64,000 bases of DNA from Candidatus Cloacimonadales bacterium (GTDB lineage: Bacteria > Cloacimonadota > Cloacimonadia > Cloacimonadales > JAFGVF01), in assembly GCA_963677495.2 (NCBI GenBank), contig CAXXOU010000004.1, forward strand, positions 192,001 through 256,000, given 5' to 3'. Both the position numbers and the translations under genes were made by a program. Positions 8,232 to 52,030 of this stretch are shown piece by piece (position 1 is the stretch's first letter; every line of letters begins with the position of its first letter). A model generated the notes under the pieces. The model had not been told where the DNA came from, searched no databases, and saw nothing but the letters and a program-made list of their open reading frames with translations.

Positions 8232-8382
8232 ATTCAAAACAGTTAAAAAGAGCAAGCTCTTTGTGTCAAGTAGAGGATTAAAGCTAGCTTTATGGTTTCA
8301 ATCGACTGCTTGTCAGGGCATAGCTTTTAACGAAGACTGATGTCGGTTTCAAATTGTAACTTCAAGTCAACTACTTCTCTTT

Positions 8383-8522
8383 ACTTAATCGCATCAAGAA
8401 CTTTATTGCACCGTTAAATAAGTTATGCACACGATGTGGATAACTTTAGGGGTTCATAGGGAGGGTCTAGGGAGGCTATAGGGAGGGACAAGCGAGATTC
8501 AAGGTTTTTGAAGCGATTAAGT
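8383..8522. repeat. Inverted-repeat-bounded element with DnaA-box-like palindrome and 11-bp-period array (copy A)
   Basis: IR 8383-8401/8504-8522; TTATGCACA-cga-TGTGGATAA 8423-8443; TAGG/AAG cores at 8457, 8468, 8479, 8490, 8501. Confidence 0.75.
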
Positions 8523-9016
8523 TAAGGATTCCTAAGGACTCCAAGAGATTCATTAGGTATATGATTCCAATTTTTTCTTGGAATTGTGTTCTTAAGAGCA
8601 AAGGTTGGCCTTTTTTTTGAAAGTGCGTTCTCCAGTTGGTTGTGGTATACATCTTGAAAGAGTGAAAATTGGGGATGATTCGGAGAAATGCATAATGCTT
8701 TTCACGAGTTCAAGACGGTGGATTATGAGTATACATTTACAATCCTACATGCCCTTAATTATAAAATATTATCAAGTTCTAACAAAATAAGTCACTTAAG
8801 ACATGTATTTAGAAAAAAGAAGTATCTATGAGAACAAACTCTTTGATATTTCTTCGTTACAATATGGGTGTCACATATTAACAATAATTGATTAAGTACA
8901 GATTGATAGAGATTTCCCTTGACAGTAATGCTTTACAAACATTTGCTATAATATAGGTATATTCATTGAAGCGGACTCATAAATGAGGTGATGTTACCTA
9001 CTTATTGGAGGAGCGG

Positions 9017-9961
9017 ATGAAAGAAAAAGTCATTCTGATGGTAAATTCGGAAAAGAAGCGAGAACAGTTGAAAACAGTGTTGAATGAAAAATATTCAGTA
9101 AAGATTAGTGAAATATTTTCTGAGCTTCCAACTGACGGGCACTATGTGATTCTTGACGATGCCACCAGAGACGATCAAGCGAATTTGACTAAGCATTTAA
9201 TCAAATCAAATAATGAACTTAAGAAAACAAACCTGCATTTAGAGCAACGCTTAAGAATGAAGAGTTCAGAGTTGATGGAGATGCAAAAAGAGTTAGAGAC
9301 ATTAAGTAAATCTATATCATACGACTTGAGAACACCGTTGAGAGCAATCTCCGGATTTGGGCAGTTGATACTTGAGGAATATAGTTCGAGTTTTGATGAT
9401 GAAGGGAAACGTTTAAGTGATATTGTTAATAACAATGTAGCAAGAATGAACGATTTGATAGATGCATTACTCAACTACTCTTACTTTAACAGATATGAGA
9501 TACAACCTGTAGATATCAATATGAATAAAATGGTGCAATCTGTATACAAAGAATTGACTACAGCAGTAGTACGTGACAAGATTGATTTGACAATTGAGAA
9601 TTTGCCAAACGCTTATGGTGACCCATTGCTCATTCGAAAAGTATGGTATATCCTATTAGCTAATGCTATAAAGTATACACAATATAATCAGAAAAGAGCC
9701 ATTTCAATAACTGCTAAAGAGCTAAGCAAAGAGTTTGTTTATAAGATAAAAGATAATGGTGTTGGATTTGATATGGAATACTCCGATAAGTTGTTTAACG
9801 CTTTCCAAAAATTGCATAGTGAGATACAATTCCCTGGGGTAGGTATGGGACTTGCCTTAGCAAAAAGAGCCATTAAGTTACATAAAGGATTAATATGGGG
9901 AGAAGGAGCAATCGATAAAGGTGCTTCATTCCAGTTTACAATCCCGAAGTTTAAAGTGTGA
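9017..9961 (+). CDS. Cytoplasmic sensor histidine kinase-like protein (H-box His replaced by Tyr)
   Basis: SISYDLRTPLRAISGF H-box, NAIKY, DNGVGFD, GVGMGLA; start at ATG after GGAGGAG. Confidence 0.85.
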   Translation: MKEKVILMVNSEKKREQLKTVLNEKYSVKISEIFSELPTDGHYVILDDATRDDQANLTKHLIKSNNELKKTNLHLEQRLRMKSSELMEMQKELETLSKSISYDLRTPLRAISGFGQLILEEYSSSFDDEGKRLSDIVNNNVARMNDLIDALLNYSYFNRYEIQPVDINMNKMVQSVYKELTTAVVRDKIDLTIENLPNAYGDPLLIRKVWYILLANAIKYTQYNQKRAISITAKELSKEFVYKIKDNGVGFDMEYSDKLFNAFQKLHSEIQFPGVGMGLALAKRAIKLHKGLIWGEGAIDKGASFQFTIPKFKV

Positions 9962-10013
9962 TTAAGCGTGGCTAGGAAAAGAGTGCAATACCCGGTGATA
10001 TTGGAGGTAGTAT

Positions 10014-10451
10014 ATGAAAAACTCATGTGATATGTTGTTAGTTGAAGATAATCCTAATGATGCAGAACTTATAATGAGAGCTTTAGTACGAGAAAAGATT
10101 TCTGATCGTATAGTACATTTGGAAGATGGTGCAGAGATTATTGATTACCTTCTCGGAAGAGATAAGTACAAAGATCGTGATACAACAATGCAACCGAAAG
10201 TAATCATACTTGACTTAAAACTACCAAAGATGACTGGTTTGGAAGTTTTGGAAGTGTTACGGGAGAATGAAACTACAGAGTTAATACCGATAGTTATTGT
10301 AACGTCGTCAATGGAAGACTGTGATGTTGAGAGAGCATACTCTCTCGGAGTTAACAGCTTTATTGTTAAACCTGTTGATTTTAACAAGTTTATAAAGTCT
10401 ATTAAGATGGTTGGTGATTACTGGCTAAATACAAATCATCAACCATATTAG
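10014..10451 (+). CDS. Single-domain response regulator (Rcp1-like)
   Basis: LLVEDNPND, ILDLKLPKMTGLEVL, GVNSFIVKPVDF...YW. Confidence 0.9.
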   Translation: MKNSCDMLLVEDNPNDAELIMRALVREKISDRIVHLEDGAEIIDYLLGRDKYKDRDTTMQPKVIILDLKLPKMTGLEVLEVLRENETTELIPIVIVTSSMEDCDVERAYSLGVNSFIVKPVDFNKFIKSIKMVGDYWLNTNHQPY

Positions 10452-10464
10452 GCAGAGGAATGTT

Positions 10465-12750
10465 ATGCTGAAACCGATAAAGATTTTAATTTTAGAAGAT
10501 TTGCCATCTGATGCAGAGTTAGCACAACGCCAGTTAAAGAAGCATTTGGGTGAGAGTGTAATAAGGATAGTAGATTCTAGAGATGACTTTATAAATGAAT
10601 TGAACAATTTTGAACCTGATTTGATTGTTTCAGACTATAATTTGCCTAGTTTTGATGGTTTATCAGCCCTTAAGTTGACTCTTGAAAAAGATCCCAGTAT
10701 CCCGTTTATAATACTTACTGGCTCAATGAATGAGGATACAGCGGTTGAATGTATGAAAGCAGGAGCATGGGATTATGTGATAAAGGAGCATAATAAACGA
10801 CTCGGAACATCAGCGATTAGTGCTCTTGAAAAGAGAAGAGTATTAGATGAAAAAGCAAAAGTTTCTGAAACAAATCGAGAAAACCAGATATTTATCCAAC
10901 AGATTACAAGGACTATCCCCTTATTCCTCTTTATATTTGATTTAAGTTCTAATCAATCAACATATTCGAATAGAGATATCTGGAAGGCTTTAGGCTATGA
11001 AAGTTTGAATAAAACGCAAAATGAAGGTCATTTTTTACTATCCATAATTCATGAAGAGGATGTTACTTCGCACACCAACCTATTTAATAGATTAAGAGAT
11101 CTTAAAGAAGGTGAAGTTGAAAGTAATGAGTATAGAGTCAAAGATGCATCAGGGGAATGGGTCTGGTTCAGGTCTATGTATGTCGTCTTTAGTTTCGATG
11201 ATTCAGGAAAGCCATTAACAATCCTTGAATCGACGCAAGACATTACTAGTTTGAAGAAAACTCAGAGAGATCTTCGAGAAGCTCACAAATTCTACAAACA
11301 GATTCTTGATAGTACTCAAGATGGGATAGTTGTCGCTAACTTAGAAAATAAGATAGTTTTTTGGAATCCTCCCATGACTGAGATGTTTAATATGGATTAT
11401 TTAGATGTGTTAGGTAAGGATCTAGAAGATATCTTTTCTAAAATTGGACGAGAATCTGAATTACCATTGTTAGAACAGTCAAAATTAGGTCATATTGTAA
11501 CCACTCCCGATTATATTTTTAACTATAAAAGTACCGGAAAAACAGGATGGGCGAATGGAAGATATTTTCCTCTTTTAGATACGAACAATGATTTTTCAGG
11601 TGTTATTTACATGGCTCATGATATAACGAAAAGAAAACTTGATGAAGTTGAACTTAGAGAAAGTGAGCATAAATACAAGACCATATTCGAAAATATACAG
11701 GATGTATACTTTGAAACGGATATGAACGGAATTATTGTAGAGATAAGTCCTTCCTTGAACACAATCTCTGGGTATACCAGAGAGGAGATGATAGGTAAAT
11801 TTATCGGTGATGTGTATGCAGATCTTGACGTTAGAAATAGATTACTTCAGAGACTTAAGAACGGGGAACGTTTGAAAGATTATGAGATTCTTCTCTTAGA
11901 TAAAGATGGCACACAAAGAGATTGTGCTGTGACTGCCCAAATTCTGCTTGATAAAAAGGATAATAAACCTCACGTATATGGAATAATGAGGGATATTTCT
12001 GAAAGAAAGAGAATAACAAGCGAGCTGATCCAAGCGAAAGAGAAAGCAGAGGAGATGAGTAAACTTAAATCAGCCTTCTTAGCAAACATGAGTCATGAGT
12101 TGAGAACACCTCTGGTTGGAATTCTTGGATTTGCTGAGTTGCTGAATGATATGGTACCAGATTCAGAAATAAAAGAGATGGTTGAAACTATTCTTGAATC
12201 AGGTGAAAGATTGCATACAACACTGAATCTAATCCTTGATCTTTCTAGAGTTGAAGCGAACAGGCAGGAAATTAAATGGACTAAAGTTGATTTTGTTTAC
12301 CGAGTAAACGAGAATATTCGAATCTTTGAGGGATTAGCGCAAAAGAAAGGCTTAAGCTTAAAACTGAATACTGAGTATGATAAGCTTATCTGTGATAACG
12401 ACTCATATCTTTTAGACCATATTCTGAGTAATGTGATTAATAATGCGATAAAATATACAGAAACTGGTTATATAAAGGTTGATCTAAGTAAAGAAATAAT
12501 TGATGAACTAGAATATGCTGTAATTCAAGTTACTGATACTGGTATTGGTATAGACGAATGTAGACAGGAGCTTATTTTTGATGCTTTCAGACAGGCAAGT
12601 GAAGGATATCATAGAATGTATGAAGGTACAGGTCTAGGACTAACAATTACTAAAAAGTACGTAGAATTATTAAACGGAAGAATATACTTAAAAAGTGCAT
12701 TGAATCAAGGTAGTACATTTACTATACAGTTCCCTGTACACAGAGTTTAA
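10465..12750 (+). CDS. Hybrid REC-PAS(x3)-histidine kinase
   Basis: N-terminal receiver (SDYNLP), three PAS/PAC ends (QDIT, HDIT, RDIS), FLANMSHELRTPL, GTGLGL. Confidence 0.9.
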   Translation: MLKPIKILILEDLPSDAELAQRQLKKHLGESVIRIVDSRDDFINELNNFEPDLIVSDYNLPSFDGLSALKLTLEKDPSIPFIILTGSMNEDTAVECMKAGAWDYVIKEHNKRLGTSAISALEKRRVLDEKAKVSETNRENQIFIQQITRTIPLFLFIFDLSSNQSTYSNRDIWKALGYESLNKTQNEGHFLLSIIHEEDVTSHTNLFNRLRDLKEGEVESNEYRVKDASGEWVWFRSMYVVFSFDDSGKPLTILESTQDITSLKKTQRDLREAHKFYKQILDSTQDGIVVANLENKIVFWNPPMTEMFNMDYLDVLGKDLEDIFSKIGRESELPLLEQSKLGHIVTTPDYIFNYKSTGKTGWANGRYFPLLDTNNDFSGVIYMAHDITKRKLDEVELRESEHKYKTIFENIQDVYFETDMNGIIVEISPSLNTISGYTREEMIGKFIGDVYADLDVRNRLLQRLKNGERLKDYEILLLDKDGTQRDCAVTAQILLDKKDNKPHVYGIMRDISERKRITSELIQAKEKAEEMSKLKSAFLANMSHELRTPLVGILGFAELLNDMVPDSEIKEMVETILESGERLHTTLNLILDLSRVEANRQEIKWTKVDFVYRVNENIRIFEGLAQKKGLSLKLNTEYDKLICDNDSYLLDHILSNVINNAIKYTETGYIKVDLSKEIIDELEYAVIQVTDTGIGIDECRQELIFDAFRQASEGYHRMYEGTGLGLTITKKYVELLNGRIYLKSALNQGSTFTIQFPVHRV

Positions 12751-12759
12751 GGAGTAATA

Positions 12760-13152
12760 ATGCAAAGTGATGACAAGAAGTTAAAACTCTTAGTTATTGA
12801 TGATGATTATTTAGTATATGAGATTATCAGGAGAATGTTGCATGCAAGTGCAAATGTTGATTATGCCCGATCTGGAGATGAAGCGATAGAACATCTTGGG
12901 CGTTCTGAATATAGTCTGATTTTCTTAGACATTAATCTAAAGAGCAAAGAAAGTGGATTGGACATCTTGAAAAGAATTAGGGAGATCGAGAGTTTTTCTA
13001 AAACACTTGTATGCGCAACCACAGCATATGCAATGTTGGGAGACAAGGAAAGATTTCTTGAAGCTGGATGTGACTATTATCTATCTAAGCCATTTACAAA
13101 AGATAATTTGAGATTACTCATTGAAAAATCATTAGATATTGTCATAGAATAG
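12760..13152 (+). CDS. Single-domain response regulator
   Basis: VIDDD, FLDINL, TAYAMLGDKERFLEAGCDYYLSKP. Confidence 0.9.
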   Translation: MQSDDKKLKLLVIDDDYLVYEIIRRMLHASANVDYARSGDEAIEHLGRSEYSLIFLDINLKSKESGLDILKRIREIESFSKTLVCATTAYAMLGDKERFLEAGCDYYLSKPFTKDNLRLLIEKSLDIVIE

Positions 13153-13160
13153 TAAGGGGC

Positions 13161-13547
13161 TTACAGCCCCTCACTTTTCTCTATTCGTTTAATAATCTTT
13201 CTGATCAACTTATCCGGATTTACAGGTTTAAACATAACATCCTGTAAGCCTAATTTCTTACAATTTACAATTGAATGGGAAGGATCATATCCAAATCCTG
13301 TCATCATAATAACCGGAAGAGAGTTATCATAATCCATAAGAGCAGTGTATAGCTCAAACCCATTCATGTCAGGCATAGCGATATCAGTTAACACGAGGTC
13401 TATATCCCCTTGCATAACTCTCATCTTTGCCTCATGAGCAATATTAAAGGTTAAAATTTCCCAGTCTGGAATCAGCCTTTTAAGGTCATACATCAAGTTT
13501 TCGAGGAGCTCTTGCTCATCATCTACAATTACTATTTTGTACCCCAT
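13161..13547 (-). CDS. Single-domain response regulator
   Basis: IVDDE, LTDIAMPDMNG, MMTG, KP. Confidence 0.9.
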   Translation of the reverse strand: MGYKIVIVDDEQELLENLMYDLKRLIPDWEILTFNIAHEAKMRVMQGDIDLVLTDIAMPDMNGFELYTALMDYDNSLPVIMMTGFGYDPSHSIVNCKKLGLQDVMFKPVNPDKLIRKIIKRIEKSEGL

Positions 13548-14428
13548 GTCTTAGCATCTTCTCCTGCAATAGATTTGTAAGCTGTGTAATATTTATCGAA
13601 AGTTTTACTGATAACCTCTTCAGGAAGCTCAGGTGCAGGTGGGTTCTTATCCCAACCTGTTGCTGAGATATAGTCTCTGATATATTGTTTGTCGTAGCTC
13701 TTAGGTGTTTTACCAACTTCATACTCTTCAATATCCCAGAATCTTGATGAATCAGGTGTAAGCATTTCATCGATAAGGTAAATCTGGCCTTCTATAGTTC
13801 CAAACTCGAACTTAGTATCAGCTAAAATAATCCCTTTCTGTTTAAGGAAATCAGCACCGAATTTGTATAGAGCTATTGATTTTTCTTTAAGTTCTTCAGC
13901 GATATTTTTATCAACTCTGTTAAGCATTTCAGCATAGCTGATATTGATATCATGGCCCTCTTCAGCTTTTGTTGATGGAGTGAATAAAGGCATAGGGAAT
14001 CTTTGAGATTCTTTCATCTCTTCAGCGATGAGCGTGTTGTTAACAGTACCTATACTCTTATACTCTTTCCAAGCTGAACCGGTGATATAACCACGAACGA
14101 TACATTCGAAAGGTATTACTCTTGTCTTTTTAACAAGCATACTTCTGTCTTCAAGCTCTTCTTTGAAAGGATGGAACTCTTCCGGATACTCATCTACATT
14201 ATCAGTAATGAAGTGATTAGGCATGATGTCTTTAGTAGCTTTAAAGAAATGTACTGAGATTTGGTTTAAGATTTTCCCTTTGTTTTCGATCTCATTTGGA
14301 AAAACTACATCAAATGCAGAAATCCTGTCTGATGTTACGATAAGGAGTTTATCTCCTAAATCATAGATGTCTCTTACTTTTCCTTGAAAGTGCTTTTGTA
14401 CGATTTGTAGTTCGCTAATTTTCATCAC
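13532..14428 (-). CDS. purC: SAICAR synthetase
   Basis: GKVRDIY, SDRISAFD, ECIVRGY, ADTKFEFG, DEMLTPDSSRFW, DKQYIRD. Confidence 0.97.
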   Translation of the reverse strand: MMKISELQIVQKHFQGKVRDIYDLGDKLLIVTSDRISAFDVVFPNEIENKGKILNQISVHFFKATKDIMPNHFITDNVDEYPEEFHPFKEELEDRSMLVKKTRVIPFECIVRGYITGSAWKEYKSIGTVNNTLIAEEMKESQRFPMPLFTPSTKAEEGHDINISYAEMLNRVDKNIAEELKEKSIALYKFGADFLKQKGIILADTKFEFGTIEGQIYLIDEMLTPDSSRFWDIEEYEVGKTPKSYDKQYIRDYISATGWDKNPPAPELPEEVISKTFDKYYTAYKSIAGEDAKTWGTK

Positions 14429-15362
14429 TATTCTCCTCAGCTTTATATTTTAGATTTGTTAGTACTCTCTTTATATTAGTCTGATATGTTCCCATAACCA
14501 AATCTTTATTTGTGTTTACCAGCTCAAAAAAGACAATCCATAACTCATCTAAGGTGTCTTTGTTCACAGCTAAAAACTCGTTGTCGCGGAAATCCATATC
14601 GGTGAAAACTGGAAATTCATCTACTCCTTTGCTTGTCTCAACACTTCTAACCATGCCTTTAAGTATCTCTATTTTAGTGCCTTCACCCTCCATCACTGTG
14701 TTGATATAACGGGCTGTATAGTAGAATATCATATATTGATAGAATCGGGATAAAAGGTCTATTTGCTTTCTCATAATCTCAGAGTCTTCAAACTTTATAT
14801 CATTAAACAGATCGGCACGTTTCTTCTCTAAAATTGATAAGAATGTGCTTCCTGATCGAAGATAAGTCTCAATAAGAAGATTCTTAGAGAATTTCTTACC
14901 AGCTTCCATTTGAAAAAGTTGTCTGAAAGTTTTAACTAAATCTGCAAGAAAGAAACGATCTCTAAAAGGACCAATATAGAATAGATCACCTTGTGTATCT
15001 TCTTTAATCTGAACTTGTATATCTCCATCAAAGTCTAATGCTAAATAGCAGTAGTCTTCATAAGGTTTAATTTGTGCCTGTAACTGAGGTTTAAGTTTCT
15101 TGATTAGCTTCTTTTGCCAGATAAGAGCATTAAAAGTATCAGGCATCTCTTCCCAATGAATCTCTGTGGCAGTATCTTTTAATGCTATGAATCTTGGATC
15201 TTCCTGCATTTTATCAAGATAGAAACGTATTCTGCCTTGCAGGTTTCCAGCTAAAGAAACATAGAGAGCGTTAAGAGCATTCGAGAAATAGAAGATTCCC
15301 GGATTCTTTGGTAATTTATCAATCTTAGCCTGCATGTCAGACGTGATAGTTAATAGATTCAT
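14415..15362 (-). CDS. Degenerate UvrC/Cho-like protein (GIY-YIG-like N-terminus plus UVR-like helix)
   Basis: LPKNPGIFYF...LYVSLAGNLQGRIRFY resembles the UvrC N-terminus; YIGPF; IKFEDSEIMRKQI. Confidence 0.55.
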   Translation of the reverse strand: MNLLTITSDMQAKIDKLPKNPGIFYFSNALNALYVSLAGNLQGRIRFYLDKMQEDPRFIALKDTATEIHWEEMPDTFNALIWQKKLIKKLKPQLQAQIKPYEDYCYLALDFDGDIQVQIKEDTQGDLFYIGPFRDRFFLADLVKTFRQLFQMEAGKKFSKNLLIETYLRSGSTFLSILEKKRADLFNDIKFEDSEIMRKQIDLLSRFYQYMIFYYTARYINTVMEGEGTKIEILKGMVRSVETSKGVDEFPVFTDMDFRDNEFLAVNKDTLDELWIVFFELVNTNKDLVMGTYQTNIKRVLTNLKYKAEENSDEN

Positions 15363-15378
15363 CTTAATTCCTTCTTTC

Positions 15379-16344
15379 CTAATTATTTATAACTTCCGGA
15401 TTTACAATAGCTTTTGGCATCTTGCCGTCTAATGCTGCGATAGCATTGTCTACTGCTAGGAAACCCATTGTGTTTCTTGTTTCAGTTGTAGCTGAACCTA
15501 TATGAGGTAACAATACAACATTTTCAAGATTCATCAGTTCGGGACAAATTTCCGGTTCATGCTCATATACGTCAAGTCCTGCTCCGGCTATTTCCCCATT
15601 TTTAAGTGCTTTAACTAACTCAAGCTCGTTTACGCAAGCTCCACGAGCTGTGTTAATAAGAATAGCATTTCTTTTCATCAACTTAAATTGATCTTTATCA
15701 ATCAGATAATGTGTGTCTTTTGTGTATGGAATATTCAAGCTGATAAAGTCAGATTTTGCTAAAAGCTCTTCTAACGGAACTTGAGTAGCGTTAATACCAT
15801 CTATTGTAGTTTTTGAACGATTAGTGTAGAGTACATTCATATTGAAACCGGAAGCTCTGCGTGCTACTGCTTTACCAATTCTACCAGCACCAATCACTCC
15901 AAGTGTTTTCCCGGAAATCTCATGCCCACAAAAGAGAGTTGGTTTCCAGCCTTTGAATTTCCCGGCCCTTACGTAGCTATCACTTTGAACAATCTGCCTT
16001 GCAACTGCAAACAATAAGCTCCAAGCAATATCAGCTGTAGCTTCTGTTAGTACTCCGGGAGTATTGCAAACAGCAATACCCAGCTCAGTTGCTGTAATGA
16101 CATCAATGTTATTATATCCAACCGCATAATTACTAACACATTTCAGTTTAGGATTTGCCCTTAAGATCTCTTCATCAATTTTGTCTGCAAGAGTGCACAA
16201 AACTGCATCTGCCCACTTAATACCTTCAAGCAACTCAGCTTTGCTGAGAGCTCTGTCGTCCAAGTTAGCTCTTAGTTCAAAATTATCTTTAATATAGTTC
16301 ATTGCTTCTTTTGGAAGCTCTCTTGTCACAAACAGTTTCTTCAT
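15379..16344 (-). CDS. D-2-hydroxyacid dehydrogenase (glyoxylate reductase/D-glycerate dehydrogenase)
   Basis: AVGYNNID, NTPGVLT, GAGRIG, INTARG, GLDVYEHEP, PHIGSAT. Confidence 0.92.
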   Translation of the reverse strand: MKKLFVTRELPKEAMNYIKDNFELRANLDDRALSKAELLEGIKWADAVLCTLADKIDEEILRANPKLKCVSNYAVGYNNIDVITATELGIAVCNTPGVLTEATADIAWSLLFAVARQIVQSDSYVRAGKFKGWKPTLFCGHEISGKTLGVIGAGRIGKAVARRASGFNMNVLYTNRSKTTIDGINATQVPLEELLAKSDFISLNIPYTKDTHYLIDKDQFKLMKRNAILINTARGACVNELELVKALKNGEIAGAGLDVYEHEPEICPELMNLENVVLLPHIGSATTETRNTMGFLAVDNAIAALDGKMPKAIVNPEVINN

Positions 16345-17456
16345 ATGTTATCTACCTGATATTTAAATGATTTTATACCATGGAAGATAGCTTTCACTAT
16401 CTTGTCCTGATGTTCTTTCTTATTCAGTTTTTTCTCTTCATCCTTATTAGAAATGAAACCTGCTTCAATTAGTACAGCAGGCATGTAAGCACCTTTCAAT
16501 ACATAAAATCCGGCTTGCTTAACCCCTCGATCTTCTGACTTAGTTGCAGTAACTAGGTTTGTTTGTAACTTATTAGCTAAGTCGGAACTCTCAGCTAACT
16601 GTTCAGTCATAGATATGTCTGCAAGTAGGAAGTCTAAAGAGTTGTATTCCTCAACTGCATCCTCACCACCTTCATACTTATAAACAACTGAGTTTTCCAT
16701 CTGTTCAACAGCTCTAGCTTCGTCAGTTTTTGCAGTAGAAAGATAGTAAACTTCGATTCCTGTTGCTTTTTTATTTCTAGCTGAGTTGAGATGTATAGAA
16801 ATGAACATATCAGCTTTTTCAGAGTTGGCAAATTTTGTACGGTTTCTTAGATGAACATACTCATCTTTTGACCGTGTAAGTAGCACTTTAACATCGAGAT
16901 TCTTTTCTAATAACTCTTTCAGCTTAGTCGCAATATAAAGTGTTATATCTTTCTCTTTTAATTTTTTAGATATTCCAACAGCACCAGGATCTTTCCCTCC
17001 ATGCCCAGGATCAATAACTATAGTTCTAATAGCATCATCGTCAGGTATTTCAGCTAGTAATAACCTACGCTTCATATCGAAGCGAATCTCTTTCTTAAAA
17101 ATATACGGGGCAACTTCAGCGAAGAAAGAAACAGGTAAGTAGTAGACTCCATCATGTAGTTTTAAATCATATATAAAGCTGAAGTAGTCAGTTCTATAAT
17201 TTACGAAAGAGCTTTCGGTAAGGAAATAAAGATGTTTCTTGTAAATAGATACTCTAAGTTTATCATCTTTCAATTCTTCTCTATAAGAACCACCCATGAT
17301 ATCTGAAAACTCTTTAAGTTTGAAATAACTGATCTCTCCAAACTTGGTCTCTTTTAGCGTACGCTTATCTTTCGATCCTTTGAATCTGATAGATATATCA
17401 GCACTTAAAATACTCACACAAATTATTATCGTTGCTAGGCATATTATCTTTTTCAT
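16341..17456 (-). CDS. N-acetylmuramoyl-L-alanine amidase (Amidase_3)
   Basis: Signal peptide; IDPGHGGKDPGA, EKD, FISIH, PAVLIEAGFISN. Confidence 0.93.
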   Translation of the reverse strand: MKKIICLATIIICVSILSADISIRFKGSKDKRTLKETKFGEISYFKLKEFSDIMGGSYREELKDDKLRVSIYKKHLYFLTESSFVNYRTDYFSFIYDLKLHDGVYYLPVSFFAEVAPYIFKKEIRFDMKRRLLLAEIPDDDAIRTIVIDPGHGGKDPGAVGISKKLKEKDITLYIATKLKELLEKNLDVKVLLTRSKDEYVHLRNRTKFANSEKADMFISIHLNSARNKKATGIEVYYLSTAKTDEARAVEQMENSVVYKYEGGEDAVEEYNSLDFLLADISMTEQLAESSDLANKLQTNLVTATKSEDRGVKQAGFYVLKGAYMPAVLIEAGFISNKDEEKKLNKKEHQDKIVKAIFHGIKSFKYQVDNI

Positions 17457-18355
17457 TATAATTCATCCTTGAATTTAGGTGTCCATGCATCACTGCTTCC
17501 ACATTCCTGAACGTATGCATTTTTGAAGCCAAGAGTAGCAGTTAATCTAACTAAATCATCATATAAATCGGGTGAGACTGACTTACTAAGAACTTTAGAT
17601 TTATCTGCCTGATAAGTTGGGTAATACTGTCCCATTAAGCTGAGATATAAGTCACTCCCAAATTCTTCATGCAACATATACAATACTTTCTTGGAACCTG
17701 ATACATCATCAGGTAGCACAAGATGGCGTACTAGCATTCCCCGAGTAGCTATCTCTTCACTACAAACAATATCTCCAACTTGCCTATACATCTCTTTTAA
17801 AGCAAGTAATGCTATATCTGGATAATCAGGTGCAAAGGAGTATTTCTTAGAAAACTTAGGACTGTAGTATTTGAAATCAGGAATATAGATATCAACTAAA
17901 CCATCTAATGTCTTTAAAGTCTCTATAGACTCATATCCATTAGAGTTCCATATGACAGGTAAAAACAAACCTAATTTCTTAGCTTCTATTATCGCTTCAC
18001 GAATCTGTGGTGTATAATGGGTAGGGGAGACCAGGTTAATGTTGTGTACACCATTATTTTGTAGTTCAAGCATTATTTTTACAAGCGCTGATATGGTGAT
18101 AGGTTTACCATCTCCCTGTTGACTTATTTGCCAGTTTTGACAGAACACACAGTGCAGGTTACAATTTGAGAAGAAGATTGTACCACTGCCGGAAGAACCA
18201 GAGAAAATAGGTTCTTCTCCAAAGTGTTTTTGATGCAGGTTATATTTGATTTGTTCAGTACTGTTACAGTTACCGGTCGTAGCGTATCTATCAACTCCAC
18301 ACTCATGTGGACAGATTTTACAAGCTTTTAGTTCCGTGAAAAGCTTGTCACTCAT
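17456..18355 (-). CDS. PflX-like radical SAM protein
   Basis: CKICPHECGVDR, HFGEEP, GSGTIFFSNCNLHCVFCQN, RHLVLP. Confidence 0.9.
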   Translation of the reverse strand: MSDKLFTELKACKICPHECGVDRYATTGNCNSTEQIKYNLHQKHFGEEPIFSGSSGSGTIFFSNCNLHCVFCQNWQISQQGDGKPITISALVKIMLELQNNGVHNINLVSPTHYTPQIREAIIEAKKLGLFLPVIWNSNGYESIETLKTLDGLVDIYIPDFKYYSPKFSKKYSFAPDYPDIALLALKEMYRQVGDIVCSEEIATRGMLVRHLVLPDDVSGSKKVLYMLHEEFGSDLYLSLMGQYYPTYQADKSKVLSKSVSPDLYDDLVRLTATLGFKNAYVQECGSSDAWTPKFKDEL

Positions 18356-18731
18356 TTAAACTGAAGCTCTCCGGTAATAGTTTTTTGATTGAAGTGACAT
18401 TACTTTGAGAGTTGGACCCATAGATAATCTCTACATCATCGCTAAACTCACTTATAACTTGTCTACAAGCTCCGCAAGGAGGAAAGGGTATCTCAGCATT
18501 AGCAAAAACTGCTAGCTTCACAATCTTCTTTTCTCCTGCTGAGATCATTTTAAATATGGCTGTTCTTTCTGCACAGTTTGTGAGTGAATAAGAGCTGTTC
18601 TCAACATTACAACCAGTATAGATATTGCCATTATCAGTTAATACTGCAGCCCCAACCTTGAACCCTGAATAGGGAGCATATGCGTGCTGGGAAGCTTCTT
18701 TTGCTAGCTCGAGTAACTTTGTGAGTTCCAT
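18348..18731 (-). CDS. cdd: Cytidine deaminase
   Basis: AYAPYSGFKVGAA, GCNVEN, CAERTA, PCGACRQ. Confidence 0.95.
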   Translation of the reverse strand: MELTKLLELAKEASQHAYAPYSGFKVGAAVLTDNGNIYTGCNVENSSYSLTNCAERTAIFKMISAGEKKIVKLAVFANAEIPFPPCGACRQVISEFSDDVEIIYGSNSQSNVTSIKKLLPESFSLNE

Positions 18732-18740
18732 ATTTTCTCC

Positions 18741-19850
18741 TTAGCTTAGAAGTGCAAGGATGATTCCACCTGCAACAACTGACCCAATCTGCCCTGCAAC
18801 ATTAGCGCTTACGGCAGGCATGAGTAGGAAGTTGAACGGATCTTCTTTTAATCCCATTTTATGTATGACACGGGCTGACATTGGGAAGGCTGAAATTCCA
18901 CATGCACCAATCATCGGATTTATTTTCTTCTTAATAAACAGATTCAAGAGTTTTGCAAACAGCACACCACCGGCTGTGTCGAATATGAAAGCAACCAATC
19001 CAAGGCACATAATGAACAATGTCTTTGTTTGAAGGAAATCCTCTCCTGTCATCTTGGTTGCAATAGCAATACCCAGCAGGATTGTAACAATATTGCCAAG
19101 TTCCTTCTGTGCAGTTAATGATAATGATTCAAGCACACCACATTCTCTTATAAGGTTACCAAACATGAGGAATCCAATAAGCGCAGCTGATTCCGGAGCA
19201 ATAAGCCCTGCGAGTAGCGTTATCATAATAGGGAAGATAATCTTTACTGATTTAGGTATATCACTTGTGTTATAATCCATACGGATCTTACGCTCTTTGC
19301 TGGTTGTAAGTAGTTTTACCACAGGTGGTTGGATAATAGGTACTAAAGCCATGTATGAGTATGCAGCTACAGAGATAGGACCTAAAAGGTCTTTAGCAAA
19401 CTTTGAGGCTACATATATAGATGTTGGACCATCAGCTGCACCAATAATGCCTATTGATGCTGCTTCTCTGATAGGAAAACCGATTAAAGCAGCCATAGAG
19501 ATAGTGAAGAATATACCGAATTGGGCTGCTGCACCGAACAAGAGCATGAGCGGATTGGTTAATAATGGTGTGAAGTCAATCATAGCACCAATAGCGATGA
19601 ATATCAGTAAAGGAAACAACTCATTGGCAATTCCAAAGTCAAACAGGACTCTCATAGCTCCATGAGGGCTTATAGTTCCCACAAGCTCAGCCATGGGAAG
19701 ATTTGCCAGTATTGTACCAAAACCAATAGGTAATAGTAAAGCAGGCTCATACTCTTTCTTGATTGCGAGATAGATTAGTATGAAGCCAATCAATATCATA
19801 ATTGTACTTTTAAGCTCAATCGCCATTATTCCACGAAACAATTCCTGCAT
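18741..19850 (-). CDS. Na+-translocating decarboxylase beta subunit (stand-alone paralogue)
   Basis: EPALLLPIGFG, GAMIDF, GIIGAADGPTSIY, AYSYMALVPIIQPP, NVAGQIGS. Confidence 0.92.
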   Translation of the reverse strand: MQELFRGIMAIELKSTIMILIGFILIYLAIKKEYEPALLLPIGFGTILANLPMAELVGTISPHGAMRVLFDFGIANELFPLLIFIAIGAMIDFTPLLTNPLMLLFGAAAQFGIFFTISMAALIGFPIREAASIGIIGAADGPTSIYVASKFAKDLLGPISVAAYSYMALVPIIQPPVVKLLTTSKERKIRMDYNTSDIPKSVKIIFPIMITLLAGLIAPESAALIGFLMFGNLIRECGVLESLSLTAQKELGNIVTILLGIAIATKMTGEDFLQTKTLFIMCLGLVAFIFDTAGGVLFAKLLNLFIKKKINPMIGACGISAFPMSARVIHKMGLKEDPFNFLLMPAVSANVAGQIGSVVAGGIILALLS

Positions 19851-19899
19851 ATATTCTCCAATAAAATCAGTATGAATTCACTTTTCTAATCACAGTAAA

Positions 19900-20298
19900 T
19901 TAATCAATGTATTTTTTGTATTCTTCCATTATCTCTTTGGGTAAACGAGTTGGGCGCCCATTTTTAACAAAAGCACCAAATACAGTCAATGTGCTACAAA
20001 GATCATTATTCTGATTATAAATCTCTTGGTACCAACGACCTTTAACTCTATTTAACTCCTGAATATGAGTCTCGATTCTTATCTTTTCACCAAAACATAC
20101 ACCTTTTTTATAGTCAAGCTCTACACGTATAACAAATATTCCCATCTCCAAATCACTAAGCGCATGGATTGAGTACTTGGTCTCATCCAATGCTTCACTT
20201 CTTGCCTCTTCATAAATCTGAAGATAGTTTGCATTATTCATATGACCATAGATATCACATTCATACCCATAAATCTTGCGACTATATGTAAATGCCAT
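19900..20298 (-). CDS. Acyl-CoA thioesterase (4HBT/YbgC hot-dog family)
   Basis: ECDIYGHMNNANYLQIYEEAR; start moved to MAFTY after GGAGGA. Confidence 0.85.
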   Translation of the reverse strand: MAFTYSRKIYGYECDIYGHMNNANYLQIYEEARSEALDETKYSIHALSDLEMGIFVIRVELDYKKGVCFGEKIRIETHIQELNRVKGRWYQEIYNQNNDLCSTLTVFGAFVKNGRPTRLPKEIMEEYKKYID

Positions 20299-20543
20299 TT
20301 CATCCTCCAAAATATTATCTTTTAGTGTTTCATATATGTAATAAGGGATGTTGTCAAGGAATGTATTTATTTTATGGAGTGCACCAACTGTGTAGGTGCG
20401 TCTTGTCACACAACTCTTAGATGAGTCCTTCAGTACTCCTGGAAGTATCTGACAAACTCCATGAAACAGATCTCTACCTAATTATCCTCCAAATTTTCCC
20501 TGCTGGCGAATTTTCCCAATTTTGCACCAATTTTGCCCTGCTT

Positions 20544-20700
20544 CATCCCTTCCGGTTCCGTGACTAAAAAGGTGTTTCAAAGGTAATCCACAGGTGACCC
20601 TCTCGTGACCCTCTCGTGGAAGGCCTCGAATTATCCACATGATGTGGATAACTTGAATATCTATGAAAAACTTGTCGTAGTCACGCGACTGGAAGGGATG
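20544..20700. repeat. Inverted-repeat-bounded element with DnaA-box palindrome and 11-bp-period array (copy B, reverse orientation)
   Basis: IR 20544-20566/20678-20700; five 11-mers 20569-20623; TTATCCACA-tga-TGTGGATAA 20631-20651. Confidence 0.8.
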
Positions 20701-28034: not shown

Positions 28035-28307
28035 ATGAGTAGAGAAGGATTAATCAAAAAAATAGCCGAAGATGCAGGCTTAACCAAAAAAGTTGCAACT
28101 ACAGCTTTGAATTCCGTATTAGAAGGTATTCAAACAACTCTTGAAGCCGGTGACAAAGTTACTCTTATCGGTTTCGGTACTTTCTCAGTTAAAGAGCGTC
28201 CTGCACGTATGGGCGTTAACCCTCAAACTAAAAAGAAAATTAAAATAGCTGCGAAGAAAGTTCCTGTTTTCAAGGCAGGTGCAAAACTTAAAGAAGCTGT
28301 AAAATAA
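28035..28307 (+). CDS. hup: DNA-binding protein HU
   Basis: GDKVTLIGFGTFSVKERPARMGVNPQT...PVFKAGAKLKEAVK. Confidence 0.96.
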   Translation: MSREGLIKKIAEDAGLTKKVATTALNSVLEGIQTTLEAGDKVTLIGFGTFSVKERPARMGVNPQTKKKIKIAAKKVPVFKAGAKLKEAVK

Positions 28308-28855: not shown

Positions 28856-28987
28856 CTCAGCAGTAATTCATTATCCCAGATTGGTTTTATCTTGGTAACA
28901 ACTTGGCAATTTCTTTGCAATTAGGCCAAGGATAGGCCAAGGGTTGACCAAGGGTTGGGTAAGTGTTTACCAAGAATTACTGCTGAG
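28856..28987. repeat. 132-bp palindromic element with inverted CTTGG/CCAAG 11-bp arrays (copy C)
   Basis: Perfect 14-bp terminal IR CTCAGCAGTAATTC/GAATTACTGCTGAG; cores at 28880-28913 and 28926-28970 every 11 bp. Confidence 0.8.
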
Positions 28988-29017
28988 TGTATTGTCCTGA
29001 AATAGTTACCCTAAACT

Positions 29018-29452
29018 ATGAAAGGAAAAGAGATGAAAGAGAAAGAAGAAAAGAGAGTTTTGAGAAACTATAGTGTAGTATTTAAGATGAAAGTAGTAGA
29101 CGAAATCGAGAGTGGATATTTAACTATTAGTGAAGCAACTCAGCTTTATAAAATACCAAGTACGACAACCATTCGAGGTTGGATCAAAAAATATGGAATG
29201 GATCAAAAGATTGATAAGGTGGTACACTATATGACTAAAGATGAAAAGACCGAATTAATCCGCTTACGCAAGGAGAATAGACGGCTTCAGCGTGCATTGG
29301 ACGATAGCTATCTTAAAGAGTTAGCATTAGAGACATTGATAGAAGTATCCGGTAATAAGCTAGGTATGGATCTAAAAAAAAAGCTTGGTTCGATAGTGCA
29401 GGAAAAACTCAAGAAAGAGCTATTGAATGCGGACTCCGATACAGAGGATTAG
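29018..29452 (+). CDS. IS3 OrfA (HTH)
   Basis: YSVVFKMKVV...TIRGWIKKYG HTH plus coiled coil; A9G slippery run 29374-29383. Confidence 0.88.
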   Translation: MKGKEMKEKEEKRVLRNYSVVFKMKVVDEIESGYLTISEATQLYKIPSTTTIRGWIKKYGMDQKIDKVVHYMTKDEKTELIRLRKENRRLQRALDDSYLKELALETLIEVSGNKLGMDLKKKLGSIVQEKLKKELLNADSDTED

Positions 29453-29466
29453 AGAGGATTTGTAAG

Positions 29467-30255
29467 GTGTACGGTTATACAAGACAAGGCTATAATAAGC
29501 ATGTAAAAATACTCGAACGAGATGCTGCGAGAGACCGTGAGATAGTGCGACTCGTGGAAGAGCTCCGGCGAGAACAGGAGACAACAGGCTATCGAATGAT
29601 AATGAAAATGCTTATAAAACATAATGATCCTGACCTAAAGATAAGTAGAGATAAACTAATAGAGTTGTTACGTATGAATAACTTATTGCAAAGACCTCCC
29701 AAGCGATATGTAGTTACAACAAACTGGAAGCATAAATTGAAGATATACCCCAATCTTTTACCGGAAACGAACATCACAAAAAAAGACCAAGTTTGGGTAA
29801 CAGACATTACATATATCTCAGTTGGAAGGGGGTTTATGTATCTGTTTTTAGTAACAGACTACTATTCAAGAAAGATAGTTGGTCACTACTTATCTGATAC
29901 TCTGGAAACAAAAGGAGCAGTGAAGGCATTTAATAAAGCAAAAAGAGGAACAAAAATCCCGCGAGGTATAATACTTCACTCTGATCATGGTGTCCAGTAC
30001 TGTAGTAAAGAATACATCGGATTGCTTAAAAGAAGCCATGCAAGAGTTAGTATGACAGGAAAGAATCACTGCTATGATAATGCAGTCGCTGAAAGAGTAA
30101 ACAGAACATTGAAACATGATCTGGGAATGAAATTGAAATTCCCAAACAAAAAGGTCGCTTTGCAAGCAACGGAAGAAGCAGTTTATATCTATAATAATAA
30201 AAGATATCATTCTTCACTTGACTACAACACTCCTGGAAGTGTATATGCTTCTTAG
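29467..30255 (+). CDS. IS3 OrfB DDE transposase (fused to OrfA by -1 frameshift)
   Basis: WVTDITY, HSDHGVQY, DNAVAERVNRTLK, YNNKRYHSSL; the -1 frame is open back to the A-run. Confidence 0.92.
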   Translation: MYGYTRQGYNKHVKILERDAARDREIVRLVEELRREQETTGYRMIMKMLIKHNDPDLKISRDKLIELLRMNNLLQRPPKRYVVTTNWKHKLKIYPNLLPETNITKKDQVWVTDITYISVGRGFMYLFLVTDYYSRKIVGHYLSDTLETKGAVKAFNKAKRGTKIPRGIILHSDHGVQYCSKEYIGLLKRSHARVSMTGKNHCYDNAVAERVNRTLKHDLGMKLKFPNKKVALQATEEAVYIYNNKRYHSSLDYNTPGSVYAS

Positions 30256-30633
30256 TAAATCAATTTAGAAAAGATAGAATTATTTCATTCAATTGAAGTA
30301 AACTGAGTAACTAAAACTATGGTAAACTTATTCAGGACACTGCAGAGAGTAGAATGTGAATGAAGCTTATAATACCTATTTCTACATTCACTAATGTTAT
30401 GGTACTGGTTCGAAGTTCTTTTTTCTTTTCTTTTATTTTATCTTCGCTCAATAATCACATCCTTTCATTCTATAGAGCTCTTTGGAAATGAGCGCAAGTC
30501 TAAAATAAAGAGATTGTTTGAAGAAAGAATAATAATGATTATGCACATTGTAATAAGGTGTTAGCTAATTTATCTTGACAACTAAACCTGATTCTCAGAC
30601 TTGCGATATATAATATTTCCTTTGGAGGTTAAT

Positions 30634-37607: not shown

Positions 37608-37651
37608 GCTATATTTATTGCCCTTTTAGCTCTCTTTTACTGCTCTATCCA

Positions 37652-37760
37652 TCAACGCACTGTGCTCCCACTGTGCACGCACTGTGAAGGCACTGCCAAC
37701 CCACTGTTTCACTGGGTGCACAGTGCGTGCACAGTGGGAAAACAGTGGGATGACTGTGTT
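37652..37760. repeat. Inverted 11-bp-period array CACTGT/ACAGTG (copy D)
   Basis: CACTG[T/C] at 37658, 37669, 37680, 37691, 37702; ACAGTG at 37720, 37731, 37742 and ACTGTG at 37753. Confidence 0.85.
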
Positions 37761-37839
37761 TTGGTAAAAAGTTTACAGGAAGTTTGCGATATCGAAAATG
37801 ATGTATAAAAGTATAACAGTGATAGAACTGAGAAATATC

Positions 37840-46207: not shown

Positions 46208-46339
46208 CTCAGCATTAATTCCTGTGAGACACTTGGGTAACCCTTGGGAAACACTTGGGTAATCCTTGGGTTAATTACCAAGGGATAACCAATTTATTAT
46301 TAAGTTAGAATTGATTAGCAAGCAGTTGTTAATGCTGAG
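46208..46339. repeat. 132-bp palindromic element (copy E, homologue of copy C in reverse orientation)
   Basis: CTCAGCATTAA...TTAATGCTGAG ends; CTTGGG at 46232, 46243, 46254, 46265; CCAA at 46278, 46289. Confidence 0.8.
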
Positions 46340-46487: not shown

Positions 46488-46625
46488 TTACCCCCATTCA
46501 ATAAAGATATGACAAAGATTATATATTTATCCACAACTTGTGACTAACTTACTGCTTTGAGTAAGTGAGTAGTAAGAGAGTAGTAAGTGTGAAGTAAGAG
46601 AGAAGTAAGAATTGAATGGGGGTAA
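46488..46625. repeat. Inverted-repeat-bounded element with DnaA box and GTAAG 11-bp array (copy F)
   Basis: Perfect 15-bp IR TTACCCCCATTCAAT/ATTGAATGGGGGTAA; TTATCCACA-act-TGTGACTAA 46527-46547; GTAAG at 46561, 46572, 46583, 46594, 46605. Confidence 0.82.
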
Positions 46626-46684: not shown

Positions 46685-46770
46685 TTTATATCCATCCCTT
46701 ATCCAACTTATAAGATTCCTATATGTTTATATAGGTTTCATATAAGAGACATATAGGGAACTTTTAGGGA
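46685..46770. repeat. Inverted 11-bp-period array CYTATA/TATARG (copy G)
   Basis: Cores at 46685, 46696, 46707, 46718, then 46730, 46741, 46752, 46763. Confidence 0.65.
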
Positions 46771-46859
46771 TTATGTGTCCGTTGCTCCTGTGCCTGACGG
46801 GAGATTGGAGGAATAAAATCATTTAAAATTGTGTTGGGATTATATGATGAAGATGTTCG

Positions 46860-51678: not shown

Positions 51679-52030
51679 GTAGAACGTTTCTCCGGAACGT
51701 TTGACCCGATAGGGTCACAAAATACTAGCCAATGGGTCCACGACCCATGGACATGAAACAATGAGACCGCAATCCGATTAGGATTGCACTAATCCCATTC
51801 CCCAAACAGAGGTATAATGCAATCCATGTAGGATTGAAATTACATTAACCCAGACCATGGATCGTGGACCCATTGGCTAGTATTATGCTTTCCTCCGGAA
51901 AGAGATTGTAACAGTAGCTCGAGTCCATCTCAGTCCTACTGGTGACAGCTTCGAAAACACTGCTGTCTGCATTTTAGGAAGTCCGTTTCCGCTACGCAAG
52001 CTACGCATCAGACAAACTCCCTGAAATGCG
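51679..52030. repeat. REPIN-like inverted doublet and dispersed repeats
   Basis: IR AATACTAGCCAATGGGTCCACGA (51721) / TCGTGGACCCATTGGCTAGTATT (to 51884); inner GCAATCC-N5-GGATTG hairpins; 51969-52028 matches 37461-37510 inverted. Confidence 0.75.

Follow-up and report, generated by a model that had tools for sequence, protein, structure and literature searches.

In the parC locus of plasmid R1, sets of five 11-bp direct repeats adjoin the promoter of the gene coding for the binding protein ParR, which, according to the available part of the published account, binds parC cooperatively and autoregulates its own expression (PMC2241845). In the REPIN-RAYT systems, as described in the accessible part of the preprint, a cognate repeat lies beside the gene, this linkage follows the gene phylogeny, several gene-repeat pairs occur in a genome and satellites are counted in tens (10.1101/2022.05.22.493013). 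DnaA boxes next to about five phased repeats for an element-encoded protein are found at the iteron origins of RK2, P1 and F, whose iterons are of 17–22 bp (PMC4980987, available part). As for the DnaA boxes themselves, DARS1 and DARS2 of E. coli carry boxes I and II in opposite orientation and 5 bp apart, together with a third box (PMC6868365), and E. coli DnaA is described to prefer pairs of boxes 2–3 bp apart, modelled in tandem, TTATCCACA being given as a DnaA box (PMC11317965); both descriptions follow the accessible portions of the two papers.

Here we describe a repeat system that is parC/ParR-like at its master loci and REPIN-RAYT-like in its gene-plus-satellite pattern, yet is a member of neither class. 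It was recognised in a stretch of 64,000 nucleotides (hereafter the window, positions 192001–256000 of contig C4) from the genome of a Candidatus Cloacimonadales bacterium (designated G000; 3.41 Mb, 4 contigs). The original prediction on this DNA proposed three loci with one layout, consisting of an inverted repeat (IR) arm, a linker, an inverted pair of DnaA boxes, about five units with 11-bp period and the partner IR arm, and this layout is confirmed at all three, here elements A, B and F (Table 1). The consensus of the DnaA box is TTWTNCACA, with position 5 being free. Four further 11-bp arrays, placed by the same prediction at 28856, 37652, 46208 and 46685, are real as well and lack boxes.

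Table 1. Repeat elements and associated features of the window (positions refer to the window)
Feature	Position	Strand	Remarks
Element A, subfamily A (34 copies)	8379..8526	+	IR arm, linker, box pair, inverted word, five 11-bp units, IR arm
IR arms of element A	8379-8401/8504-8526		23 bp, 3 mismatches; 21 nt to box pair
Inverted DnaA-box pair of copy A, 3-bp spacer	8423..8443	.	both halves match TTWTNCACA
Array of copy A	8444..8510	+	one inverted and five direct words, 11-bp pitch, TAGGG-type
Element B, subfamily B (24 copies)	20544..20700	-	orientation opposite to A
IR arms of element B	20544-20566/20678-20700		23 bp, 3 mismatches
Array of element B	~20564-20630
Box pair of element B	20631-20651		26 nt to IR
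Head-to-head 11-bp array without boxes, family c2 (39 copies)	28856..28984	+
IS3-like element	28988..30344	+	1357 bp, 3-bp duplication; inserted 4 nt after c2 array
Head-to-head CACTG array without boxes, family c0 (67 copies)	37645..37765	.
Array without boxes, family c2	46208..46295	-
Element F, subfamily F (7 copies)	46488..46625	+	AGTAAG array
IR arms of element F	46488-46502/46611-46625		15 bp, perfect; 24 nt to box pair
Box pair of element F	46527-46547		second box 1 mismatch off TTWTNCACA
Head-to-head CATAT array without boxes, family c8 (6 copies)	46685..46774	.

Element A lies between divergent lptD-like and histidine-kinase genes, and element B has a tRNA-Leu on one side and a thioesterase gene on the other. 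Copy A is spanned by overlapping read-derived contigs, with a depth of ≈14-fold on the repeat core (the reads come from the same source sample, so they are not independent). A 25-letter joint (8445–9749) present in the contigs of one sample was taken as a probable repeat artefact. Adjoining the repeat island of element F, a gene (47199–49211) codes for a fusion of an AAA ATPase and a methyltransferase-like domain, weakly resembling the retron effector PtuA, and is a possible defence gene. Elsewhere in the window, a tRNA-Cys was called by ARAGORN at 51769–51864, without Rfam confirmation, and a 90-aa gene (28035–28307) codes for a protein which we take to be HU-like.

Scan of G000 for the palindrome TTATCCACA-N3-TGTGGATAA retrieved 20, 39, 16 and 4 occurrences at 0, 1, 2 and 3 mismatches, respectively, far above chance, and no match at 0–1 mismatch was found in the same genome with the 15 other spacers in the range 0–15 or with the reverse orientation. 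Seventy-five of the 79 sites could be sorted into subfamilies A (34), B (24), F (7), G (6) and H (4); the remaining four comprised a truncated A copy, which was kept, and three chance matches, which were dropped, leaving 76 box elements. An extra subfamily-A element, outside the 76 counted, apparently carries an IS21-like insertion in its first box, beside the IS21-like element 197336–198868 on contig C3. The predicted enrichment of the 11-bp period was also found: 246 intergenic clusters were counted at lag 11 versus 1, 8, 8, 4 and 0 at lags 8, 9, 10, 12 and 13, and arrays with this period amount to ≈280 elements in 15 families. At lag 23, 30 intergenic clusters were counted.

In the original prediction the elements were thought to have a different sequence at each copy, with only the palindrome conserved. 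On the contrary, the nearest relatives of A, B and F show 94%, 90% and 90% identity, respectively, and the five subfamily consensuses align in register, with 35–68% identity past the boxes and one common IR geometry at the same offsets. Every subfamily has five direct words plus one inverted word that abuts the box pair. A process generating locus-specific 11-mers is thus not in accordance with these multi-copy families, and the argument raised against a mobile repeat (MITE) fails, because it was based on free sequence. Divergence is unevenly distributed along the element, with 0–4% in the boxes and array versus 12–28% in the linker and arms (in subfamily A, 0–2.4% versus 14–28%). Between subfamilies F and H the word differs in each of the five direct units and in the inverted one, with the first and last spacers unchanged, a difference not expected from plain 11-bp slippage but expected from selection on a word that is read.

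A single search pattern applied to 232 genomes of the phylum gave 59, 53, 10 and 8 matches in G000 and in its sister species G002, G001 and G003, respectively, one match in each of four other genomes, at dnaA in two of them, and none in the remaining 224, the box class being nearly confined to one genus. Dispersed copies of G000 show no orientation preference with respect to the neighbouring genes (28/17/16/14); 14 of 75 elements lie between converging genes and 45 of 75 have a gene start on the side where the −35 box, described below, would be. Conservation in the element flanks had no 11-bp periodicity. Comparison of filled and empty sites in 8 pairs among 266 arrays retrieved no consistent ends or target duplication; there was one possible 2-bp duplication, and no pair gave the ends of a box element.

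In the comparison of orthologous loci suggested with the original prediction, positions of the elements are not kept, and the type of array is retained at the G001 orthologs of a gene family described below. Indeed, no element is present in G001 at any of the three sites orthologous to A, B and F, and in G002 one is found at lptD only, belonging to another subfamily, in the orientation of copy A (L078, G002:C115:6890). The tRNA-Leu and lptD are immediate neighbours in G001, the former being upstream, and are separated in G000 by a 12-kb block (8380–20700) bounded by A and B. The idea that arrays mark synteny breakpoints was not retained, as adjacency was conserved in 3 of 36 gaps with arrays versus 8 of 32 long gaps without them, which is not significant (p 0.10); the comparison with 23 of 73 gaps of at least 100 nt (p 0.008) is confounded by gap length.

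Among the arrays without boxes, c2 copies are also found upstream of the genes G000:C4:946147 and C4:1498355, a c0 copy upstream of C4:1447755 and of its G001 ortholog, and a c8 copy upstream of C4:58745, all of them paralogs of the family just mentioned; c8 also partners element F at three loci. All six G000 copies of the IS3-like element lie 4–38 nt past a c2 array, in a single orientation, with a 3-bp duplication in four of the six. Such siting shows recognition of at least one array family by some machinery, comparable with the targeting of REPs by IS1397 (PMC1525189, available part).

That the palindrome consists of consensus DnaA boxes, as originally proposed, agrees with our data. TTWTNCACA is matched by 69 and 64 of 76 halves, with most of the variation at position 5, the position pattern being the only informative aspect since sites were picked by box likeness, and the same nonamers occur in the region after dnaA of G000 (oriC). 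The elements contain 93 of the 154 perfect TTATCCACA and 133 of the 484 TTWTNCACA sites of the genome. The box pair is a perfect palindrome in 20 of 75 cases and an imperfect one, with uncompensated mismatches, in 55, which fits protein sites better than a stem. Element nonamers thus behave like DnaA boxes and are predicted DnaA sites. A group of five TTWTNCACA sites, belonging to no element and lying away from dnaA, was observed at G000:C1:766199–766412. In having close consensus boxes the pair resembles both DARS, with which it shares the opposite orientation, and the preferred double boxes, with which it shares the 3-bp spacing. However, two inverted boxes 3 bp apart in 76 dispersed copies differ from the 5-bp spacing and third box of DARS (PMC6868365, available part), a spacer of 5 bp having no match at 0–1 mismatch in G000 and no third DnaA box being found in the subfamily consensuses; a DARS-like site, one of the functions originally suggested, is therefore not supported. 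The double box, in turn, is described in tandem in the available part of PMC11317965, whereas the pair is inverted here. No paper on a back-to-back 3-bp preference of DnaA boxes in Streptomyces was found in the open-access literature.

The arrays are associated with a family of genes coding for a 150-aa protein. G000 has 22 paralogs, none inside the window, and the link could not be seen in the original prediction for this reason. The family is present in 136 of the 232 genomes (≈770 matches), a protein named Candidatus Zophobacter franzmannii is 66% identical to one of the paralogs, and Pfam search of 142 members gave no match. In a tree of 45 rows, one clade obtained 100/100 support, and its 7 G000 members have no family array upstream. 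Among the other 15 paralogs, 14 have an array in the upstream gap (up to 1.5 kb of it), versus 315 of 1276 other genes (upstream gaps of at least 300 nt; Fisher 5e-8); paralog C1:781894, outside the array-free clade, has none. Downstream, no array was found at any of the 22. The 15 arrays at paralogs represent 12 of the 15 families and extend to rare ones, whereas permutation gave a mean of 7.5 families (p 5.5e-4), with no paralog alongside families c4 (23 copies), c11 and c12. The upstream regions of the paralogs are repeat-rich islands, and a simple count within 700 nt gave an array at 11 of 22 paralogs versus 269 of 760 long-gap genes, with no clear excess, so that the evidence for a link comes from the diversity of the families, the structure of the clades and the other genomes. 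Box-bearing paralogs cluster weakly (80/46), with two falling outside; a sister relationship of the F- and H-linked paralogs C4:58745 and C4:777579 was considered and is unsupported by the tree.

As regards the other genomes, the types G, c0 and c2 are retained at the G001 orthologs. Searching 500 nt upstream retrieved an array at 10 of 19 paralog loci of sister species versus 13 of 265 G001 genes, and at 13 of 46 paralog loci of other genera versus 13 of 254 genes (33 of 46 having none at this threshold), the control lags 9, 10, 12 and 13 giving 0–1 loci in sister species and 0–4 in other genera; these loci are the top-scoring ones and a small share of the ≈770 matches, related loci lack independence and the background was sampled over 120–400 kb. 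Loci were fetched with at least 300 nt upstream, two short and two duplicate ones being dropped and one without usable flank scored negative. Dispersed lag-11 arrays were found in the paralog-rich genomes G014 (5 in 140 kb), G013 (3 in 140 kb), G130 (8 in 120 kb) and G001 (14 in 400 kb), and none in G004, G031 and G005 (1, 0 and 5 paralog matches; 140, 140 and 120 kb, respectively); words of the dispersed arrays recur in the arrays beside paralogs of the respective genome (L120, L121, L118). As judged from sequence, the gene/array link holds for other Cloacimonadota as well as for 4 of the 10 Bacteroidota DUF6266 loci described below.

Other features were noticed around these genes. A TATA-rich word ending in AGAGG stands 100–350 nt before the start at many paralogs (L016, L020, L021, L061, L062), often together with 7-bp repeat tracts; a pattern of this kind matched upstream of just 3 of the 22 G000 paralogs, and 46 intergenic clusters were counted at lag 7 in this genome. 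Tandem pairs of 150-aa genes occur at L053 (G126) and L075 (G025). No recurring neighbour family (structural, lysis, recombinase or ParM-like NTPase) was found beside the 22 paralogs.

At 11 loci, here termed masters, array, box pair and gene follow one another, the full order being words at 11-bp pitch (five direct, then one inverted), the inverted box pair, a −35 box and the gene. Masters of subfamily A (G000:C1:524192) and B (G000:C2:34352 and C3:25015) were identified, and none in the usual orientation was found in G000 for subfamily F. A TTGAC, as in −35 boxes of the sigma-70 type, lies past the box pair in 9 of the 11 masters, at exactly 25 nt in seven (the A, G and both B masters of G000, one of G001, L027 of G002 and L073 of G003) and at 41 nt in two; several of them have a plausible −10 box as well, and the H and L069 masters are without TTGAC. 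On the contrary, TTGAC was found in none of 70 dispersed copies of G000 and in none of 23 of G002. The −35 position falls within one IR arm, and in the dispersed copies it is the same as the partner arm in a mean of 4.25 of 5 letters in A, 3.8 in G and 2.8 in B. As far as these sequences show, the −35 box appears to be lost mostly through growing likeness to the partner arm, which is shown for A and G and weaker for B. Of the 23 dispersed elements sampled in G002, 16 could be assigned, with a threshold of 70%, to one of the four masters of that genome.

The AlphaFold2 model of the 150-aa protein (pLDDT 95.9) has three short strands followed by helices. Foldseek gave no match at E 0.001 against PDB and viral structures, and the best hits of the structure search were ribbon-helix-helix proteins (VIA, Z 3.9, rmsd 2.4, 49 residues aligned), within noise; weak matches of this kind would not make the modelled protein a new fold. 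Conserved residues are K2, G14, R33, Y72 and L109, with no HUH pair. N-termini are basic in most array-bearing paralogs and acidic in both tested members of the array-free clade. The first 110 residues matched the DUF6266 profile (PF19781) at 76.6% (E 2e-5, 92 columns; reversed control, 0.3%), and a separate hhalign gave 43.6%; an Atlas lead to this family scored 0.87, the family being on 12% of that cluster. Pfam search of G000 with DUF6266 gave no match up to E 1, the relationship being below cut-off. The two share the same three-helix order, but the match is confined to the first 110 residues, and the C-terminal half of DUF6266, which is FN3-like (Z 10.8), is missing from the 150-aa proteins. 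These evidences suggest, moderately and not decisively, that the 150-aa protein is remotely related to the N-terminal domain of DUF6266. Among 10 Bacteroidota DUF6266 loci, 4 are preceded by an 11-bp array, each with its own word, and 6 have none at threshold. The DUF6266 set used is mostly on contigs below ≈3.5 kb. At L172 (G229:C152) the DUF6266 gene, with no array upstream, overlaps an ORF which by its motif we take to be tyrosine-recombinase-like; this locus has more than 100 close relatives on contigs mostly below 3.5 kb, which suggests a very small mobile or virus-like element. No DUF6266 locus was confirmed in viral contigs.

Compared with parC/ParR, the masters of G000–G003 have the same arrangement of five 11-bp repeats by the promoter of the gene. 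However, the elements lie on the chromosome, the gene has no recurring ParM-like NTPase as a neighbour, the paralogs are many and differ in their words, arrays are copied throughout the genome, one class has a DnaA-box pair, and the ribbon-helix-helix match of the protein is within noise. With REPIN-RAYT the system shares a gene with a neighbouring cognate repeat, a linkage that follows the gene phylogeny, several such pairs in one genome and dispersed extragenic copies with IRs (76 box elements, 280 arrays), but the gene is not a Y1/HUH transposase, what is conserved is a phased word array and not a REP hairpin, the arms are the least conserved part, and the repeat holds the promoter of the gene. 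Iteron origins are alike in having DnaA boxes by phased repeats; they differ from the ≈6-bp words at 11-bp pitch found here in the length of their iterons (PMC4980987, available part). Moreover, the 150-aa protein has no winged-helix Rep match, no unwinding element was found, and the GC skew of G000 switches at the dnaA-linked oriC. From a MITE the elements are distinguished by the absence of a conserved terminal IR, the arms diverging far more than boxes and array.

A protein-binding platform with helical phasing, among the possibilities originally listed, is the best reading of these data. The explanation that we favour, with a confidence evenly balanced between right and wrong, is that of a row of sites which, as in parC, is bound cooperatively by the protein of its own gene and which has been copied genome-wide as a non-autonomous repeat. 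The element would be a copy of the control region of a 150-aa gene. Each paralog protein would bind its own word cooperatively and from one side of the helix, in the manner of ParR on parC, and together with DnaA may control the promoter of the paralog. Divergence of the paralogs is accompanied by a simultaneous change of the word in all units, whereby each paralog would obtain its own address; the change is observed between F and H, and co-evolution of protein and word would account for it. The ≈140-bp module is found copied, as a non-autonomous repeat, at dozens of random intergenic sites, with loss of the −35 box. Copying, which we regard as the weakest step, most likely needs the protein-array complex and a recombination activity. 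Against this explanation, no catalytic motif for mobility is evident. A broader version of this explanation, which we hold to be unlikely, is that DUF6266-like proteins polymerise on their own arrays, the coated array being the unit copied, with orthogonal paralog-word codes in Cloacimonadota and Bacteroidota; the proteins would perhaps be domesticated from small virus-like elements, and one lineage would have taken up the DnaA-box pair, tying copying or expression to replication.

The copies might instead be kept for the host, as nucleoid-organising sites for the 150-aa proteins, the box class acting also as a distributed DnaA sink of the datA/DARS type. The share of the perfect boxes of G000 carried by the elements and the far lower divergence of boxes and arrays than of linker and arms are consistent with this, as is the scarcity of box elements around the C4 GC-skew switch, where a distance of 400 kb, chosen post hoc, includes 7 of 76 box elements versus 58 of 200 arrays without boxes (p 4e-4; at 200 kb, p 0.14). 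In G001, however, the trend is reversed, with 11 of 12 elements origin-distal; copy number of the box class differs between sister species and is zero in most phylum genomes searched, positions are not kept across species and the geometry is unlike DARS, so that we consider a host-serving platform quite improbable. A similarly small probability is given to a site of coat or packaging nucleation, where a coat-like protein, domesticated from a small virus-like element with DUF6266, would polymerise on the array, one unit for each helical turn, and arrays would spread as packaged or protected DNA. The profile match and shared helix order with DUF6266, the small contigs of that set, one behind the tyrosine-recombinase-like ORF, and the FN3-like domain speak for it; the 150-aa proteins, though, are without this domain, structural, lysis or recombinase genes do not recur beside them, the DUF6266 gene of G229 has no array and no viral structure was matched.

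Still less probable are ordinary MITE or REP-type repeats moved by Y1 (RAYT-like) or IS transposases, the gene link being then due to shared repeat-rich islands. An enclosing IR, a length of 140 bp, random intergenic siting, strong predicted folding (z −5.6 to −8.0), mosaics with REP-like repeats, the presence of 10 Y1-like genes in G000 and the IS1397-like targeting of one array family by the IS3-like copies would all fit. Yet an array lies within 200 nt (the linkage rule given in the available part of the RAREFAN preprint) of 1 of the 10 Y1-like genes, and a box element within 500 nt of none; the arms are the least conserved part, no IR sequence is common to the subfamilies, target duplication is not consistent, and the ends of the two IS compared, IS3-like and IS21-like, differ from those of the elements. 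Shared islands, moreover, leave unexplained one family per paralog, ortholog-specific types and the master-only −35 box. A structured RNA, as the original prediction had also considered, or a ssDNA hairpin, with the IR closing a stem and words once per A-form turn, is very doubtful, since, despite the same folding scores on both strands, arm covariation in subfamily A (own 13.1 versus cross 11.2, p 0.002) and a G002 family with symmetric boxes, both strands fold alike as for any IR, covariation was not found in B, F, G and H, most box pairs are imperfect, the array at masters lies upstream of the −35 box and outside the predicted transcript, and Rfam matched only the tRNA-Leu in the window, with nothing near gathering score at 5 paralog loci.

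No published account of such arrays in Cloacimonadota or Bacteroidetes, or of DUF6266, was found in the open-access literature without supplements, and the available part of PMC8542988 is silent on such repeats. The proposed parC-like binding row and its satellites appear new as a system, for the cognate gene family, the master/satellite structure and the master-only promoter, with moderate confidence in the mechanism. Helically phased repeats form a large unexplained class in bacteria, for which the 150-aa family would provide a candidate reader; the arrays, in turn, would offer DUF6266-like proteins a first function open to testing. Should binding be confirmed, pairs of paralog and word would represent natural orthogonal DNA-binding modules with matched sites, and the whole would be a gene-plus-satellite repeat system with a gene other than a known transposase. 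Finally, since the box class has 60% of the perfect DnaA boxes of G000, the organism makes it possible to test directly if DnaA titration can be altered by a repeat that spreads.
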